Positions 8,714-35,744 of a stretch of DNA of 43,950 nt are shown here, piece after piece. The DNA is from a virus (Duplodnaviria > Heunggongvirae > Uroviricota > Caudoviricetes): positions 1 to 43,950 of the IMG/VR virus record IMGVR_UViG_2778261535_000013; one strand, given 5' to 3'. Below the pieces are notes generated by a model. It was not told the DNA's origin and did not search any database. It was given only the letters and a program-made list of their open reading frames with translations. How positions within the stretch are numbered: the stretch's first letter is position 1; each line of letters opens with the position of its first letter. A program made the translations under genes and the position numbers.

Positions 8714-9450
8714 TTAAAGCGAGCGGATGCCCACGCTGACCAGATGTTCAGACAGATCCGGCTCCGGTTCACCACCATTGACCAGCATCCGGCTCATTGC
8801 TGTAAACATCGCAACAGGGCCGTCGATTTTGGCTTCCGGCGTGGATTTATTCGGGAAGATGTTGTCGTTTTTGTCCGGTTTTACCGTAACGTTAGACATC
8901 ATCCAGTTCATGACCGGATGATTGCTGTGATGGAAACGCCCGGCATAGACCAGTGATTCCGTTTCCTTCATGGCCTCTGACAGATTGCGAACCGTCTGCG
9001 GAACCTCCACCAGCGGTATCCCTTCTTCAGCCAGTGCCAGGCTGAACTGCATCGCGCTCCACGGGTCAAATCCCAGTTCCCTGAGGTTTTCACCACCAAT
9101 CCATTCCAGTAAGTCACTTTTTATCTGAGCATGATCGATAACATCACCATCCGTCAGAATCAGCTTATCCATCTCCGCCCACTTCCGGTAAAGTTCTGCC
9201 TGCTGCCGCGAGCATCGTTCCAGCCGTCCTTCCGGAAGCCAGAATTTAAAATCGGCATGAACATGCCCGTTATCCGTTCGCCAGAGTTTTGCCGCCGCAC
9301 AGATATCAATCTTATGAGCAAGGTCAACGCCGACCCACATGGGATACGTTTTCAGCTCATGTCGTGGGGCAATGTATTCGCACTTCTCCCACTTAATCAT
9401 GTCCATCCAGGCAGACTCTGCTGTTACCCACACATTCATGTGTTTGGTAA
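8714..9450 (-). pseudogene. terL: terminase large subunit, C-terminal (nuclease-domain) fragment of an interrupted gene
   Basis: 241 aa ORF begins …TKHMNVWVTAESAWMDM…; the frame is open upstream only to the insertion junction at 9450; it continues the N-terminal fragment at 24089-25116 when the insert is removed. Confidence 0.8.
9444..9450. repeat. att core copy (TTGGTAA) at left junction of the inserted element
   Basis: identical 7-mer at 24089-24095; joining left flank plus core plus right flank restores the terL reading frame. Confidence 0.6.
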
Positions 9451-9525
9451 GAATATTTCAAGTTTTTTAAAATCACCTGTATATCAATCGTTTAACATGA
9501 AAAAACAGTCTTTATAAATCATCAA

Positions 9526-9546
9526 GCAATACACAGCGCAATACAC
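9526..9546. repeat. GCAATACACAGCGCAATACAC, candidate integrase arm-type site (left arm)
   Basis: near-identical 21-mer (one mismatch) at 23938-23958 just inside the opposite end of the element. Confidence 0.4.
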
Positions 9547-9731
9547 GTATCTGTATTGTTTTAATGCTGATACACACCGTTTTTTGATACAGTGATTCGA
9601 CCTACCATCGCGAAGAATTTTTTATTTCTTGTGTGTAACAATCTGACGAGGTGAGCACTCAAAGAGATAAGAGGCAGTAGAAATTTCGATCCCCCCTGAA
9701 TGCAATTTTTCGTATATATATACAAAACAGC

Positions 9732-9885
9732 GCGGGTTATGCGGGTTAGCGGGTTATCTTCGCGTGCTAAGCATTTTTTACTCTTTAATATCAATAAGTT
9801 AAAAAAACAACGTATTTAAATATCAGCCAGAATATAACCCGCAAGACATTCAAAATAACCCGCAAACACCCCTCAAATAACCCGC
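9732..9885. repeat. iteron cluster A: three tandem GCGGGTTA(T/G) copies, an AT-rich spacer, and three inverted ATAACCCGC copies
   Basis: direct reading of the sequence; the same 9-mer recurs at 17572-17694. Confidence 0.55.
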
Positions 9886-9966
9886 AAAAACATCCCTGAA
9901 AGTGGGCGCTGGTAATACTGAAAATTTATTCCATTAAATGAGCATTGTCCTCTCTCATCCATTCCG

Positions 9967-11628
9967 TTACACACCATCAAACGCCGCAAGCCGCTCTTTG
10001 TGGCTGTCGCTCATATCGAATGCAAATTCCTCATGCTCTGCCTGGAATGTGCCAAACGCCATCAGCGCCGCAACGCTCGGGTCTATCTTGTTGGATGATT
10101 TTTTCTTGTTCGGCTTGATATTGGCGTTCGCGTCACTCTGCATCACAACATTACTCATTGACCAGGCCAACACCGGATCACCACGATGCACAATCACCTT
10201 CCGGTTAACAAAAACTTCGAACGATTTCGCCGCCGGACTGAAACGAAGATATGTTTGCGGGAACGGCTCCACCTCAAATCCTGCTCCCTGTAGCTGCGTC
10301 CTCAGGTGCGTGGCGTTCCATGTATCGAAGCCCACCAGCCTGATATTGAAATTCTCTGCATCCGCCATGATGTCATCACGGATACGGTCATAATCAATGC
10401 AGTCACCCGGTGTTGTGCGTATCCAGCCCGCCTTTACCCACTGGCGATAGATGGCGCGGTTTTTATTGGCGGGATTCTGTAGCTGAAATTCCGGCAGATA
10501 GTGACGGGAAACCAGCATAATCTTTTTACCGACCGGGAAGGCATAGCACACGCTGGAAATATCGCTGGTTGATGATAAGTCCAGCCCCGCGTAGCACTCC
10601 TGCCCGTATAAATCCGCCTCCGCGAACGTTCCGGCACACTCCGCCCATGCACCGTTACCCATCCACGGCGTAGCCCCCTGACACCAGATATTGAATCGCT
10701 TGGTGAGCATTTCCACCCACTGCGACGGAATACCCCGCGCTTTCTGGATGGTTGAGGCCAGTTTTTCACGATCGACGGAAACATCGATATTGGGATTCGC
10801 CTTTATCCACATCGCCGGATCGTCAACCTCGCTTTCATCATCCAGCTCGTAAATCAGCACGAACATGGATTCGTTCACCTCTTCACCATCCAGTATCTGG
10901 CAGCAATAGTCGTAGTGTTGTTTACAGGCTGAAACAACGTTGCTCCCCGATGTGGTGATGGCAAATAATACCCCCTCTGGACGCGCCCCCATTCCCAGTT
11001 CAAGCGCGGAATAAACCCCGTTGTCAGGGTGCAGGTGATATTCATCCACAATGGCAAGACTCGGGTTTTTCCCCTCAATGGTTGCCGCTTTTGCTGCCAG
11101 TGGCGTTAACAGGCTGTTGGTTTTCGGGTGTATCACCTTGTGCGCCTGAATATTTACCCGCTTTCGTAACGGTCGGGATAAAAGGCACATCTGACGCGCA
11201 TCATCAAACACGATCCGCGCCTGATCACGACTCACGGCGGCGGTGTAAATATCCTGCTGCCCGTTTTCCATAACCAGAAACCAGTTAGCTAGGATAGCGG
11301 CGACCGTGGATTTGGCATTTTTTCGCGGTACTTCAATGAATGCGCTGGTGTATTTGCGCCGTCCGGTGGCCTTAACCTTAAAGCCCAGGATGCAGGAAAA
11401 GGCGAACTGCTGCCACGGCTCCAGTTCAATGGGGCTACCGCGCATTGCGCCTTTTACGTGCGGACACACCCTGGAAAAGGCAATAAACCGCTCCACGACC
11501 TCCTGATCGAACGTGTAAAGGGGGTTTTCGAGGTCAGAAAAATATCGTTTAACGGCCTGTTTCAGTCGTTTACAGGCCGTAATTTTGCCGTTTTTTACGC
11601 CTTCTGCGTACTCATGCCAGGCGGTCAA
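9967..11628 (-). CDS. terminase large subunit (element-encoded)
   Basis: 553 aa with ATPase-like N-terminal and nuclease-like C-terminal regions; translationally coupled to the upstream TerS. Confidence 0.9.
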   Translation of the reverse strand: MTAWHEYAEGVKNGKITACKRLKQAVKRYFSDLENPLYTFDQEVVERFIAFSRVCPHVKGAMRGSPIELEPWQQFAFSCILGFKVKATGRRKYTSAFIEVPRKNAKSTVAAILANWFLVMENGQQDIYTAAVSRDQARIVFDDARQMCLLSRPLRKRVNIQAHKVIHPKTNSLLTPLAAKAATIEGKNPSLAIVDEYHLHPDNGVYSALELGMGARPEGVLFAITTSGSNVVSACKQHYDYCCQILDGEEVNESMFVLIYELDDESEVDDPAMWIKANPNIDVSVDREKLASTIQKARGIPSQWVEMLTKRFNIWCQGATPWMGNGAWAECAGTFAEADLYGQECYAGLDLSSTSDISSVCYAFPVGKKIMLVSRHYLPEFQLQNPANKNRAIYRQWVKAGWIRTTPGDCIDYDRIRDDIMADAENFNIRLVGFDTWNATHLRTQLQGAGFEVEPFPQTYLRFSPAAKSFEVFVNRKVIVHRGDPVLAWSMSNVVMQSDANANIKPNKKKSSNKIDPSVAALMAFGTFQAEHEEFAFDMSDSHKERLAAFDGV

Positions 11629-31766: not shown

Positions 31767-32039
31767 TTACCTCCAGATCCGTTGCTGGAAAGTGCGGGAC
31801 GGACGTGGTGGGCGTTCGGAATAAGGCAGCCTGACAGAGATTATCCAGTGCCGATAGTCGAGACTGAGAGCTTTCTTAACCTCGAACCCGCGCCTGCGGT
31901 AAGAATGAATCAGCCATTCGGCCTGTTCTTCAGTACATGGTGGGTGTTGGTACCAGTCGGTTTTAAATGCGTGTGAACGCCGCTCATGCCGGATGGCAAG
32001 GTCGGTATCAGAATTGTGAAATTTGGTTTTGTGCGCCAT
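31767..32039 (-). CDS. hypothetical protein
   Basis: 90 aa ORF with stop adjacent to the downstream gene start; no motif. Confidence 0.3.
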   Translation of the reverse strand: MAHKTKFHNSDTDLAIRHERRSHAFKTDWYQHPPCTEEQAEWLIHSYRRRGFEVKKALSLDYRHWIISVRLPYSERPPRPSRTFQQRIWR

Positions 32040-32206
32040 CTGTTTTCTCTGCTGGCGCAGCAGGTGTCAGGTGTTCAGGCTGACGTGCGAATTGTAAACC
32101 AGAATGCCAGGAAAAAACAAAACCCGCCGAAGCGGGTTAAGTGCGGGTGCGTTGAGGATGCCTGACACATCAGAGGTGGCGAGGGATTTCTCCCTCGCCT
32201 GGTCTC

Positions 32207-32362
32207 TTACTCCTCAGGTTCGTAAGCTGTGAAGACAGCGACCTCCGTCTGGCCGGTTCGGATTCGTACCTCGCAGAGGTCTTTCCTCGTTACCAGTGCC
32301 GTCACTATGACGGTTAAACAGATGACGATCAGGGCGATTAACATCGCCTTTTGCTGCTTCAT
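32207..32362 (-). CDS. hokD: Hok/Gef-family type I toxin
   Basis: 51 aa MKQQKAMLIALIVICLTVIVTALVTRKDLCEVRIRTGQTEVAVFTAYEPEE; matches the Hok/RelF family, essentially identical to hokD as recalled; the ORF track extends 19 codons upstream in frame. Confidence 0.75.
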   Translation of the reverse strand: MKQQKAMLIALIVICLTVIVTALVTRKDLCEVRIRTGQTEVAVFTAYEPEE

Positions 32363-32573
32363 AGCCTGCTTCTCCTTGCCTTTCGGCACGTAAGAGGCTA
32401 ACCTAGATTTGCCGTTCATAGATTGAGCCTCAGATTAATGTTAAGCGTTTTGCAGGACGCGTAATGTTAACTGGGGCTTTTCTCTATCTGCCTTTGGTGT
32501 TCATGCCTGAGACAGATAGCCTCAAGCACCCGCAGCCATTCTACTTAACTCCCGTCACCTGGCCAATATAAAA

Positions 32574-32663
32574 TCAATCAGAAAGGCGATCCATAAGAAC
32601 AACAGCAAGACAATAAATTGCCATTACAGCTGCAATAGCCAGCGCACATTTGAGAACCAGCAC
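32574..32663 (-). CDS. candidate small hydrophobic peptide (29 aa, GTG start)
   Basis: AGGAGG RBS 5 nt upstream of GTG; peptide (M)LVLKCALAIAAVMAIYCLAVVLMDRLSD; below the ORF-track size cutoff. Confidence 0.3.
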   Translation of the reverse strand: MLVLKCALAIAAVMAIYCLAVVLMDRLSD

Positions 32664-32710
32664 GACAACCTCCTGTATTGGACGTACACCAGTCCTGATA
32701 AATATGAGGC

Positions 32711-32731
32711 TATCTCATCATTGATGAGATA
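32711..32731. promoter_or_regulatory. perfect 21-bp palindrome TATCTCATCA-T-TGATGAGATA (candidate operator)
   Basis: direct reading; lies about 40 nt upstream of the small peptide RBS. Confidence 0.4.
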
Positions 32732-32948
32732 CAACTATTGGGTATAGTTTCTGTGATTTTGTTCTGTAGAAATGGAACACAACAACCAGTAACCACCAGC
32801 GATTCTTTAAATACGCCAAATCCGACGCAAGCTAACCTTCTAGTCCGCTTTGGGCGAAGACCGGACGTTCGATAGGTGTGAACTAGTAACTTTAAAAACA
32901 TTTAATTACCAGTAAAAAAACAAGAATATACTATCACTTTTCCAATTT

Positions 32949-33986
32949 TTAATTACCCTTATCAATTTTAAGAAATACATTTCCAATCTCATCAGAATAA
33001 TCCTGTATTATTTTTGAAATGACGGCATGATCAATGGTTGGTTTTAAGAATAAAAGTGTCACAGTAATCTGCATCAAACTAATAGCAGTAGCATGGGCTG
33101 GATCAGCCATTCCTGAATCACTTTGCCCGACCAATAATATATCATCACCAGTTTCACAGAGACCAAGCCTATTTCTCATTGCCTTGGAACCGGTGTGTAC
33201 ATTCTGACTCGCCCACTTATAATAAGGGCGCATGTGTTCTAACTGAACATCTTTCTCAATAGCTCCAAACCCCACTTTATTATGGTTAGGGAAAATATAA
33301 GATGCCCACCCATAATTATCTGCATATTTTTTGCCATATTTTTTTATTAATAGATCAAATTGAACTTTACACTCAGCTATTTCTTCAATAGTTGGACCTT
33401 TTGCTTCTAACCGGTGCTCGTACTTTTTGTGTTCCAACATTCCAGTATATGAATCAACCACTTCATGGTAGTAAAAGCGCTCAGCACACTCTTTTCCATG
33501 CTTTGCTATAAACATAGCTGTGGCCGCTACCTCATGAAGTGCTCGCCATCTCGCTTGGGCAGCATCTGCAAATCCATTCTTTAAGAGACACAAAATTTCG
33601 TTGGCGATGTGGCAAGCTCTTGCGTGATGCCGAACAACTAAATCAAAAACCACATCCTCTTCAGAGGCAGCTTGTGGTCTATAAGAACGATTGAACTCTT
33701 CACCGGACTCCGTGCATATCACTATAAGTGTTTCGAGCAAATCAAAAGCCTCTGCCCATCTTGAAATATTTCTCTCAACAAATTCATCACAAAGAGAACG
33801 ATGTTCTCTAAGCATTGCATTGGCCGAGCCAATAAGAGATTTTTTAACAACAATGGCTATTTTGGGAATTAGGTTATTAATTTCTTTTTCGATATCAGCG
33901 TCACCAGATAAATCAAGTCTCTCTTTTAAAAGGCTGTCTATGTGCTCAAGCAAAATATTATGAAAAGTATCCATGTCATATCTCAA
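32949..33986 (-). CDS. orphan 345-aa protein in an AT-rich block (candidate accessory or defence gene)
   Basis: long uninterrupted ORF in a region visibly more AT-rich than its flanks, bounded by about 200 bp of non-coding DNA on each side; no confident family assignment. Confidence 0.5.
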   Translation of the reverse strand: MRYDMDTFHNILLEHIDSLLKERLDLSGDADIEKEINNLIPKIAIVVKKSLIGSANAMLREHRSLCDEFVERNISRWAEAFDLLETLIVICTESGEEFNRSYRPQAASEEDVVFDLVVRHHARACHIANEILCLLKNGFADAAQARWRALHEVAATAMFIAKHGKECAERFYYHEVVDSYTGMLEHKKYEHRLEAKGPTIEEIAECKVQFDLLIKKYGKKYADNYGWASYIFPNHNKVGFGAIEKDVQLEHMRPYYKWASQNVHTGSKAMRNRLGLCETGDDILLVGQSDSGMADPAHATAISLMQITVTLLFLKPTIDHAVISKIIQDYSDEIGNVFLKIDKGN

Positions 33987-34201
33987 TAAGTTTTAAATCC
34001 ATGTGGCACACCCATAATATAAAAATAAACAGCATGCCAGTCTAAGTCTGGCTATTTGTATATCATATCACCTGAAACATTGACAGATGTAACCCACCAA
34101 AATATTATCAATGACCACTCTTGGCACAAAGCGAACAACCACGCTAGCTCTACCTTGTGCCATGAAAATGTCAATGCATATCTGAACTAATGCCCTTTAA
34201 T

Positions 34202-34627
34202 CTAGTAACGTCTAAAATACCTAACATTTCCCTGATAAAATGCCAGAATGCGCTGCATAACTTCGCTCTTCCGGCACTCGCGACAGATTATGTTTAGACA
34301 ACTATCGTAGCGACGTATTTCTCCGTCAGGTAATGACCAGATAAGGTCCGGATCAACCGCAGATGGTTTCTTCAGCTTTGCCCTTGAGAGCTTTTTACGG
34401 GCATTTTGCCAGTCCTTACGCGCCTGTTCAGACGGGAATAACCCGTAACCAGAGTTGTATACATCGCCGCTGGCAACCAGCTCTCTTGCGAGAACGCTCA
34501 TCAGATATCTTGTCGCACCTGTCTTGACTTCCAGTTGCCGTAACGTCTCACGCCCACTCTGGCGTACGAGTTCAACAACCTGTCCTTTAATTTTTTCCCG
34601 CTCTTCTTGTGTAAAAACTTTTGCCAC
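34202..34627 (-). CDS. hypothetical protein
   Basis: 141 aa ORF downstream of the replication initiator gene; basic with a C-terminal Cys cluster. Confidence 0.4.
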   Translation of the reverse strand: MAKVFTQEEREKIKGQVVELVRQSGRETLRQLEVKTGATRYLMSVLARELVASGDVYNSGYGLFPSEQARKDWQNARKKLSRAKLKKPSAVDPDLIWSLPDGEIRRYDSCLNIICRECRKSEVMQRILAFYQGNVRYFRRY

Positions 34628-34667
34628 AAGCCCTCCTGAAAATTACCTCATGACCAGAAATTAACAC

Positions 34668-35744
34668 TTACCCCCTGAAGCCCGGCGGAATTTCGTTATC
34701 CGGTTCAGAAATATGATTCACACAACGCTGGTTGTTCGTGCCGCTTACCGGGAGCAACCAGGGGTTCTCAAAATTCCGGTCCGGTCCAAAAAACGTCGTC
34801 GCTCGCTGAACAAATTCCGTTCCCGTTTTCCCGGTAGCCGCCAGGTATCTTGCGTAACGCCTCACGCCATCCAGCATGGCCTCTGGTGGCACCCCCTCGC
34901 GTAATCTGGCCTTCCAGGCACTGAAAGCTGATTTCTTCGGGTTTGCTCCGGCACGCAACGGGTACTCCCGCCAGACCTGTTCGAACACATCCGGATAATC
35001 CACTCGTCCCACAGACTGCCCGGTGTTTTCCGGGACTACCCGATCGGCTTCCCGCTGAATGGCGGAATCGGCTTCGGGCTGCTGCAGTTGGTGTGATTGC
35101 TCCAGCCTTGCGGTCATCACCTGCTGCACAGCGCCCGAATCGGCTTTCAGCGCATACGCTGAATCGGCTTCCGGTGTCGTGCCTGCTGGCTGACCAAGAT
35201 TGACGGTCTGAACATCCCCTGCCTGGTTCGTGGCGTTTTTTACGCCATGGACCATAGTGTTTTGATCTTCTTGATCTGTATCTTTATCTGTATCTTTATC
35301 TGTCGTGACTCGTCGTGACATGTGCGTGACATTTCGTGACGCGCCGTGACAATCGCCATTTTGTTCCCGCTTTCTTTCCCTCTCTCGCTGCGCCCTCTTG
35401 CGCTCTGCAGGAGATTTTGCGGTTTGCGAAATATTGCCGTTGTCCTCTTTAAGCACCTGGCGTTTTTCCCATCCAGTGATTAAATCACCATCAAGTACCC
35501 GCCCCTGCATCGTCTGCAAAATTGAATCAATTACCTCTTCTGTCACGTCGAGCGCACTTGCCAAATCTTCTGTCGTGACATCAATGTGACCTCGCGTGAC
35601 ATTTCGTGACGCGCTCACCAGGAGGTGGATATACACTGCCATCACTGTTGCAATTGGCTGCCCTGACACCCTGGCAATTGTTCGCCACTTAGGGTCATTT
35701 GGCATGTCATGCCATAATCTGAGCCAGGCGTTAGCCATACTCAC
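34668..35744 (-). CDS. replication initiator (lambda O-like role) containing internal iterons
   Basis: 358 aa; two arrays of CGTGAC repeats inside the coding sequence; C-terminal …FEQVWREYPLRAGANPKKSAFSAWKARL… motif seen in phage replication proteins. Confidence 0.55.
   Translation of the reverse strand: MSMANAWLRLWHDMPNDPKWRTIARVSGQPIATVMAVYIHLLVSASRNVTRGHIDVTTEDLASALDVTEEVIDSILQTMQGRVLDGDLITGWEKRQVLKEDNGNISQTAKSPAERKRAQRERERKREQNGDCHGASRNVTHMSRRVTTDKDTDKDTDQEDQNTMVHGVKNATNQAGDVQTVNLGQPAGTTPEADSAYALKADSGAVQQVMTARLEQSHQLQQPEADSAIQREADRVVPENTGQSVGRVDYPDVFEQVWREYPLRAGANPKKSAFSAWKARLREGVPPEAMLDGVRRYARYLAATGKTGTEFVQRATTFFGPDRNFENPWLLPVSGTNNQRCVNHISEPDNEIPPGFRG
35303..35349. repeat. iteron array 1: five CGTGAC copies at about 10-11 bp spacing
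   Basis: direct reading, inside the replication gene. Confidence 0.55.
35543..35610. repeat. iteron array 2: four (C)GTGAC copies plus one inverted copy
   Basis: direct reading, about 230 bp from array 1, inside the replication gene. Confidence 0.5.

Follow-up and report, generated by a model that had tools for sequence, protein, structure and literature searches.

A mobile DUF5677 gene cassette in a motif-bounded cargo hotspot of lambdoid prophages, a candidate single-gene anti-phage defense

The DUF5677 gene described here lies in the early-right region of a lambdoid prophage, within a stretch of 43,950 nt (the window). We found that it forms a self-contained 1.24-kb cargo cassette, or 'moron', which most likely acts as a single-gene defense against phages or other mobile elements, a reading to which we assign a probability of about one half and for which we infer a mechanism below. 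DUF5677 is already catalogued as an uncharacterized family. New here are the structure of the cassette, in which the 5′ region travels along with the gene, the finding that it recurs in mobile-element cargo slots of four kinds, and the evidence that its lambdoid slot is a hotspot bounded by a 24-nt motif and shared with validated defense systems.

The gene, its cassette and its family

An earlier note on this DNA had singled out an AT-rich orphan gene of 345 aa, and the ORF list confirmed a real, intact reading frame at 32949..33986 on the minus strand. The length, however, was an overcall. The TTG start chosen in the note is 12 nt too far upstream, because the RefSeq protein and all homologs begin at the ATG at 33974, which gives 341 aa. 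The RefSeq entry (WP_000379313.1, product name 'DUF5677 domain-containing protein') has the same extent, the homologs all open with an MDTFHN-like N-terminus, and in an alignment of the upstream regions the leader TTGAGAGATGAC followed by ATG was kept in the other contexts of the gene while the upstream TTG was not. The AT-rich block was evident from a GC content of 0.36–0.39 across approximately 32600–34200, compared to 0.48–0.56 in the flanks. Codon positions deviated as well, as the GC of the coding sequence is 0.383 and its GC3 0.30, against a GC3 of 0.45–0.63 in the neighboring prophage genes. Among 859 sliding windows of 1026 nt, the coding sequence had the second lowest GC of the 43,950-bp window, and the lowest windows all overlapped it. 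The gene is flanked by 227 nt of non-coding DNA upstream and by 416 nt downstream, up to the sok match, in line with the non-coding flanks noted before.

To the earlier description of a compositionally distinct single-gene insert we can now add sharp boundaries (Table 1). In a blastn comparison with phage Evi (L002), homology was confined to 32007–32873 and 34115–35000, and the extent of the unique block follows from the fact that homology stops at 32873 and resumes at 34115. Sharp breaks in the alignment were seen with all three related phages that do not carry the gene, which have in the same place a regulator and an acetyltransferase (Evi), a methyltransferase and a hypothetical protein (HannyBb), or four small ORFs (vB_EcoS-640R1). 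The cassette is thus present or absent between collinear phages and deviates in base composition, as expected for a prophage moron, and we found no other ORF on the coding strand within it. Moreover, 125–140 nt upstream and 75–108 nt downstream move with the gene between the lambdoid prophage, a Providencia island, Klebsiella lambdoid prophages and P2-like prophages. As the upstream 125–140 nt can be aligned in the Providencia, Klebsiella and P2-like contexts, the gene travels with its own 5′ region, which we regard as its putative promoter. The part of it that contains the promoter-like site TAGACT-17-TATATT can be aligned between the island, P2-like and lambdoid contexts. Downstream of the gene we detected no intrinsic terminator, and an upstream hairpin (34036..34052) was rejected as a conserved terminator, given that it is not kept as a hairpin in other contexts. 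At the upstream edge of the cassette there is also a near-consensus sigma-70 promoter-like site (TTGACA-17-TATTAT, 11/12 matches, 34080..34108, plus strand), which points away from the DUF5677 gene and runs antisense into DUF977/LygF; its −35 element is not kept in the Providencia copy.

Table 1. Coordinates of the features of the DUF5677 cassette and its surroundings in the window.
Feature	Position	Strand	Remarks
Complete hok/sok-type type I toxin-antitoxin locus	32207..32531	−	mok/hok ORF 32207..32419; Rfam sok 32357..32531, 110 bits
24-nt boundary motif GTCCGGTCTTCGCCCAAAGCGGAC	32843..32866	−	hok-side edge of the cargo slot; unique in the window, 0 expected by chance
Cassette, 1,241 bp	32874..34114	−	Unique block relative to related lambdoid phages; DUF5677 gene with ~140 nt upstream and ~75 nt downstream
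CDS, DUF5677 domain protein, 341 aa	32949..33974	−	Stop codon included; start ATG 33974, not TTG 33986; PF18928, PHROG 27456
Codon for H260, second near-invariant His	33195..33197	−	260/263 sequences; remaining three gapped
Signature motif codons R142-W-R-A-L-H-E148, R-x4-H spacing	33531..33551	−	R142, W143, R144, E148 ~100%, H147 98% in 263 sequences
Shine-Dalgarno-like GAGA (putative)	33981..33984	−	7–10 nt before ATG, within the conserved leader
Sigma-70 promoter-like site TAGACT-17-TATATT (putative)	34016..34044	−	Consensus scan, 9/12 matches

The label of orphan did not hold. The protein matches the Pfam family DUF5677 (PF18928) with 118.1 bits, far above the gathering cut-off of 27.1 (E = 5.5e-34, residues 116–278 of the 345-aa ORF), as do all 74 diverse relatives that we scanned, and it matches PHROG 27456, a group of unknown function, over all 341 residues (E = 4e-210). 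It is a clear, full member of both. A word-index search returned 553 relatives, the best 120 of which are all of approximately 341 aa, share at least 59% identity and come from Enterobacterales, Vibrio, Sulfurovum, Nitrospiraceae and Desulfuromonas. The exhaustive profile search yielded 3,552 clusters at 50% identity (E ≤ 1e-3), distributed over bacteria and archaea, and 442 loci encoding DUF5677 were located in GTDB species representatives, including Chloroflexota, Planctomycetota, Bacillota and one archaeon. The database names of these relatives are solely 'DUF5677 domain-containing protein' or 'hypothetical'. Among the distant members listed, around 40% have an N-terminal extension of 75–100 aa with no assigned domain, and two proteins, P0177 and P0165, are extended at the N-terminus over a long stretch in which visual inspection suggests hydrophobic, membrane-like segments.

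Searches for a more telling relative gave nothing. No PADLOC model matched the protein, with none of the 5,027 models of PADLOC-DB v2.0.0 reaching E ≤ 1, and the NCBIfam scan was also without a match. The PDB sequence search was negative at E ≤ 10 both for the single sequence and for a profile of 74 sequences, and Foldseek with the structure model found nothing at E ≤ 1e-3 in PDB or BFVD. In the 74 diverse members, Pfam detected neither HEPN nor any other family besides DUF5677 at E ≤ 10, and Pfam scans of long or fused members gave no informative extra domain, with the exception of one fusion to NTPase_1 and DUF2478. This rare protein of 633 aa (P0295) combines the three domains in the order NTPase_1, DUF2478, DUF5677 in the precomputed Pfam annotation. 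No solved structure or characterized member of the family turned up in our searches, and a literature search on the family name and the RefSeq accession returned no functional study. Two publications do mention the family. In Salmonella, DUF5677 is merely listed as a marker of the accessory genome (PMC12440251). In Bacillota, it is statistically enriched and co-oriented beside serine recombinases, and one such ORF, a distant homolog of the protein studied here, was assayed in E. faecalis against six phages; five ORFs protected, and the DUF5677 ORF is not listed among them (PMC12632615). An identification with the Gifsy defense protein GiPD474 was considered and rejected, since GiPD474 carries an ATPase domain.

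Cargo slots in prophages, satellites and islands

In the window, the gene is part of a minus-strand, early-right operon of lambdoid type that comprises a YdaT-family gene, the replisome organizer, DUF977/LygF, DUF5677, hok/sok, DUF968, RusA and Q. Its slot lies between the replication and DUF977 (LygF, 'Ren-like') genes and the hok/sok module, in line with the toxin modules that had already been noticed next to it. The identity of hok/sok is supported by the Rfam match to sok. Between the cargo slot and hok/sok we observed an unannotated ORF of 29 hydrophobic aa, VLVLKCALAIAAVMAIYCLAVVLMDRLSD (32574..32663, minus strand), which is preceded at 5 nt by a strong AGGAGG Shine-Dalgarno sequence and is kept in at least 57 of 103 viral contigs, where all substitutions are conservative. 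It might encode a small protein of the membrane or a peptide similar to type I toxins. The genome closest to the window, that of E. coli LR-21-1 (L139), is 99.9% identical over 2.3 kb and has between hokD and the DUF5677 cassette a transposase gene of the IS481 family (L139 2934..4007) that is absent from the window.

An exact-pattern scan with the boundary motif GTCCGGTCTTCGCCCAAAGCGGAC retrieved 108 IMG/VR contigs. On the hok side of the motif, one flank is common to 63 of the 108. The 400 nt next to the motif on the cargo side form 48 clusters (11, 11, 10, 5, 4, ..., 30 singletons), with the DUF5677 cassette as one of the three commonest. Where DUF977 is the left-hand gene (37 contigs), the slot measures 1.3–4.2 kb and shows 14 gene architectures. 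We then scanned 95 representatives of the 122 cargo protein clusters. PADLOC recognized PD-T7-1, PD-T7-3, PD-T7-5, PD-T4-2_A, NsnA, HEC-06, Tmn, UzuA (Uzume), RmrA and several PDC candidates, and Pfam added GmrSD_N (four members), HEPN_RiboL-PSP (two), HEPN_LA2681, HEPN_MAE_28990, SIR2_2 and YobI-ATPase, together with the non-defense families NUDIX, GNAT, MFS, LysR, ChaC and EAL. The PD systems were validated experimentally in a study that describes prophage hotspots as reservoirs of defense genes (Vassallo et al., 2022; PMC9519451). The lambdoid slot of DUF5677 is therefore a location shared with validated defense systems, a motif-bounded hotspot of hypervariable cargo, in line with the statement of the earlier note that single-gene inserts of distinct composition in this part of lambdoid prophages are frequently anti-phage systems. 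Because the slot holds proven anti-phage genes in related phages, the DUF5677 gene can be seen as a promising, if unproven, candidate for one-gene defense. The possibility that GTCCGGTCTTCGCCCAAAGCGGAC forms a stable RNA structure was rejected (z = −0.18), and the motif may be a recombination boundary. Diverged copies of the motif follow the DUF5677 cassette in the Providencia and P2-like contexts, and L014 has a partial, diverged copy approximately 4 kb further along.

The same gene occurs in other settings. Positions 32841..34111 of the window are 89% identical over 1273 nt to an island of Providencia rettgeri, where the gene has an integrase on one side and a 545-aa dCMP-deaminase-like protein on the other, with a 2,147-aa protein that has a faint NACHT match nearby. 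In Klebsiella, it comes after O/P-like genes for replication in another lambdoid prophage; in Enterobacter hormaechei, it is placed at the cargo end of an element with integrase, AlpA and D5 primase, the layout of a P4-like satellite; ten loci in P2-like prophages have it between the genes for tail-completion protein gpS and spike protein gpV, on the strand opposite to the late genes; and in Photobacterium it is inserted on its own amid genes of the chromosome. In the E. hormaechei loci L005–L009, the next gene after DUF5677 invariably encodes a protein of 777–779 aa with a C-terminal SEC-C motif (9200..11533, plus strand), which in L006 is divided between two ORFs. This protein was not seen with the E. 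coli cassette and is possibly a local partner in Enterobacter. In a Winslowiella P2-like prophage (L042), a co-oriented DUF2971 protein (9062..9955, plus strand) shares the gpS–gpV slot.

Neighborhood clustering of 111 loci revealed no conserved partner gene, as the only shared neighbors were genes of the phage backbone. Regarding a toxin-antitoxin partner, no conserved gene or RNA adjoins the DUF5677 gene, and Rfam finds sok alone, which belongs to the separate hok locus. The immediate neighbors in the 111 loci are mixed and include type II and IIG restriction enzymes, PD-Lambda-1, PDC-S03/S15/S48, an LA2681-HEPN protein, transposases and housekeeping genes. The cassette was found in 73 of 5,426 complete E. 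coli genomes with at least 99.4% identity. In 72 of the 73 carriers the gene is intact; the remaining one, E. coli GPEC1054 (NZ_CM142793.1), has IS2 and ISVsa5 insertions within it. One natural carrier is E. coli 55989 (NC_011748.1, 1790356–1791597). In an IMG/VR contig (L241), the ORF is split into pieces of 248 and 108 aa. Compared to the Providencia and P2-like copies, dN/dS was 0.12–0.29, which indicates purifying selection and, together with the size of the family, excludes a non-coding artifact. The gene is rare on plasmids, and among 50,697 sequenced phage records a homolog was present in a single one, Bacillus phage SPR, with 29% identity.

Conserved residues, proposed mechanism and competing explanations

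Conservation was measured in an alignment of 263 family sequences that reaches down to 25% identity. W73, L130, G134, R142, W143, R144, E148, W223 and H260 are conserved in 99–100% of the sequences, H147 in 98%, E240 in 97% and S285 in 95%. Conservation peaks at residues 106–170 and 221–312, and residues 1–60 and 313–341 are variable. The motif R-W-R-x-L-H-E (residues 142–148), which starts six residues into the fourth long predicted helix (136–169), is the most conserved stretch of the family, as picked for the locus search. It takes the place of the stretch RHHARACH, which had been put forward as potentially catalytic: this stretch does exist, at residues 115–122, but only H117 (92%) and C121 (87%) are well conserved in it, and both are less constrained than the residues above. 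A metal site on these two positions was downgraded, as both are replaced in 8–13% of the members.

The invariant residues R142-W-R144-x-L-H147-E148, E240 and H260 suggest an enzyme, possibly similar to HEPN RNases, whose conserved R-x4-6-H is matched by R142-x4-H147. We have not filed the family under HEPN because no HEPN Pfam match was obtained in the 74 members and because hhalign of the DUF5677 profile against the 95 slot cargo representatives, HEPN proteins included, gave no match (best probability 18%). Since there are no acidic clusters and Arg/His pairs of R-x4-H spacing dominate, our best guess for the chemistry is a metal-independent, HEPN-RNase-like cleavage. According to the mechanism we propose, a soluble, all-helical protein of 341 aa would be expressed from its own promoter in the lysogen and would work with no dedicated partner gene. 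The poorly conserved terminal helices (1–60 and 313–341) may confer specificity or sense the invader, and the conserved core (106–170 and 221–312) would be the enzyme, with a putative active site drawn from R142, R144, H147, E148, E240 and H260. It would hydrolyze RNA or a nucleotide by Arg/His-based and probably metal-independent catalysis, and this HEPN-RNase-like cleavage could halt phage growth by abortive infection.

The boundaries of the cassette, the co-travelling flanks, the hotspot cargo, the intactness of the gene, its dN/dS, the invariant core and the enrichment beside serine recombinases (PMC12632615) make a defense function plausible. On the other side are the PADLOC null, the Bacillota ORF that was not protective (PMC12632615), the non-defense cargo of the slot, the lack of a match to HEPN, to any other Pfam family or to the other cargo of the slot, the many distant homologs that adjoin housekeeping genes, the promoter, which is a consensus match only, and the absence of an intrinsic terminator. 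The putative role in defense is based solely on the location of the gene. The competing explanation that deserves most attention is that of a lysogenic-conversion gene with no part in defense, for example an accessory enzyme of the stress response or of the metabolism of nucleotides or small molecules, which gives the host or the prophage an advantage in some niche and does not act on invading phages. This is the kind of cargo that NUDIX proteins, GNAT acetyltransferases, MFS transporters, LysR regulators, ChaC and EAL represent in the same slot, where a NUDIX-containing pair is as frequent as DUF5677; many distant homologs, in Chloroflexota and others, are found amid ordinary chromosomal genes, and the Bacillota homolog came without a phage phenotype (PMC12632615). 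Nevertheless, we think it unlikely, if well worth keeping in mind, in view of the recurrence of DUF5677 in four kinds of mobile-element cargo slot, its adjacency to restriction enzymes, PD-Lambda-1, the dCMP-deaminase-like protein and the large protein with the faint NACHT match, its patchy spread (73 of 5,426 E. coli genomes, yet approximately 60% identity across phyla) and the finding that no metabolic operon is linked to it.

An early gene that benefits the phage, transcribed with the early-right operon and countering host defenses, assisting in host takeover or aiding replication, would be consistent with the orientation of DUF5677, which is that of the replication, RusA and Q genes, and with its position directly after the replication module, which is also that of the Klebsiella lambdoid equivalent downstream of O/P-like genes. 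Such a function is distinctly improbable for a gene that occupies non-phage chromosomal loci in 442 species representatives and islands with no phage genes, that is encoded opposite to the late genes in P2-like prophages, that 50,696 of 50,697 sequenced phage records lack, and whose fellow occupants of the slot include known defense systems. Typical anti-defense proteins are, moreover, smaller than 341 aa. The explanation we find hardest to credit is a selfish toxin of the addiction type, or a remnant in decay that no longer has a function. A single gene with no partner that adjoins a hok/sok addiction module could be read in this way, as could the occasional copies that are split or disrupted by insertion sequences, but there is neither an antitoxin-like conserved neighbor nor a second coding-strand ORF in the cassette, all but one of the 73 E. 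coli copies are intact, purifying selection is strong and the length of the protein is kept across phyla.

Defense by a single gene is thus the reading we retain, and the intuition of the earlier note on the nature of the gene, which was reasonable, is partly supported. A much broader version of it, tentative and on balance doubtful, would make DUF5677 an unrecognized and very widespread single-protein immune effector of bacteria, archaea, temperate phages and satellites, with a helical fold unlike any solved structure and a chemistry of R-W-R-x-L-H-E, E240 and H260 new to defense, and would make the lambdoid slot with the 24-nt motif a rich, unexplored hotspot. If DUF5677 is a defense protein, it would represent a new single-gene immune family of more than 3,500 sequence clusters with no detectable relative among PDB structures, and the motif would provide a simple recipe for mining candidates from a slot whose alternative cargos number in the dozens and often lack annotation. 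Otherwise, it would be a caution that a location inside a hotspot of validated systems does not by itself prove a role in defense.

Comparison with known systems

Single-protein HEPN RNases of abortive infection (AbiD/AbiF Abi_2, ApeA, RiboL-PSP-HEPN, LA2681-HEPN) resemble DUF5677 in being one gene of approximately 340 aa with an all-helical product. They also have in common with it the R-x4-H motif, near-invariant in DUF5677 as R142...H147, and HEPN proteins occupy the same prophage slot. In contrast, DUF5677 resembles no HEPN Pfam family in sequence or profile and has the extra invariant residues R144, E148, W223, E240 and H260. Moreover, the residue that follows the motif Arg is Trp in DUF5677, whereas in HEPN motifs it is usually polar.

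In position, the gene recalls the exclusion genes of the ren and rexAB type in the replication-nin region of lambda. Like them, it is found just after the replication genes, and its left neighbor DUF977/LygF is annotated in some phage records as a 'Ren-like exclusion protein', although DUF5677 itself has no sequence relationship to these genes. As for the validated systems PD-T7-1, PD-T7-3, PD-T7-5 and PD-T4-2 (Vassallo et al., 2022; PMC9519451), they are alternative cargo of the same motif-bounded lambdoid slot, and DUF5677, which is not homologous to them, is a candidate for defense only. Finally, with the cargo of the P2 and P4 hotspots (Rousset et al., 2022; PMC9122126) DUF5677 shares the carriers, as it is also cargo in P2-like prophages and in a P4-like satellite element with integrase and primase, and the position that it takes in the P2-like prophages studied here is the one between gpS and gpV.
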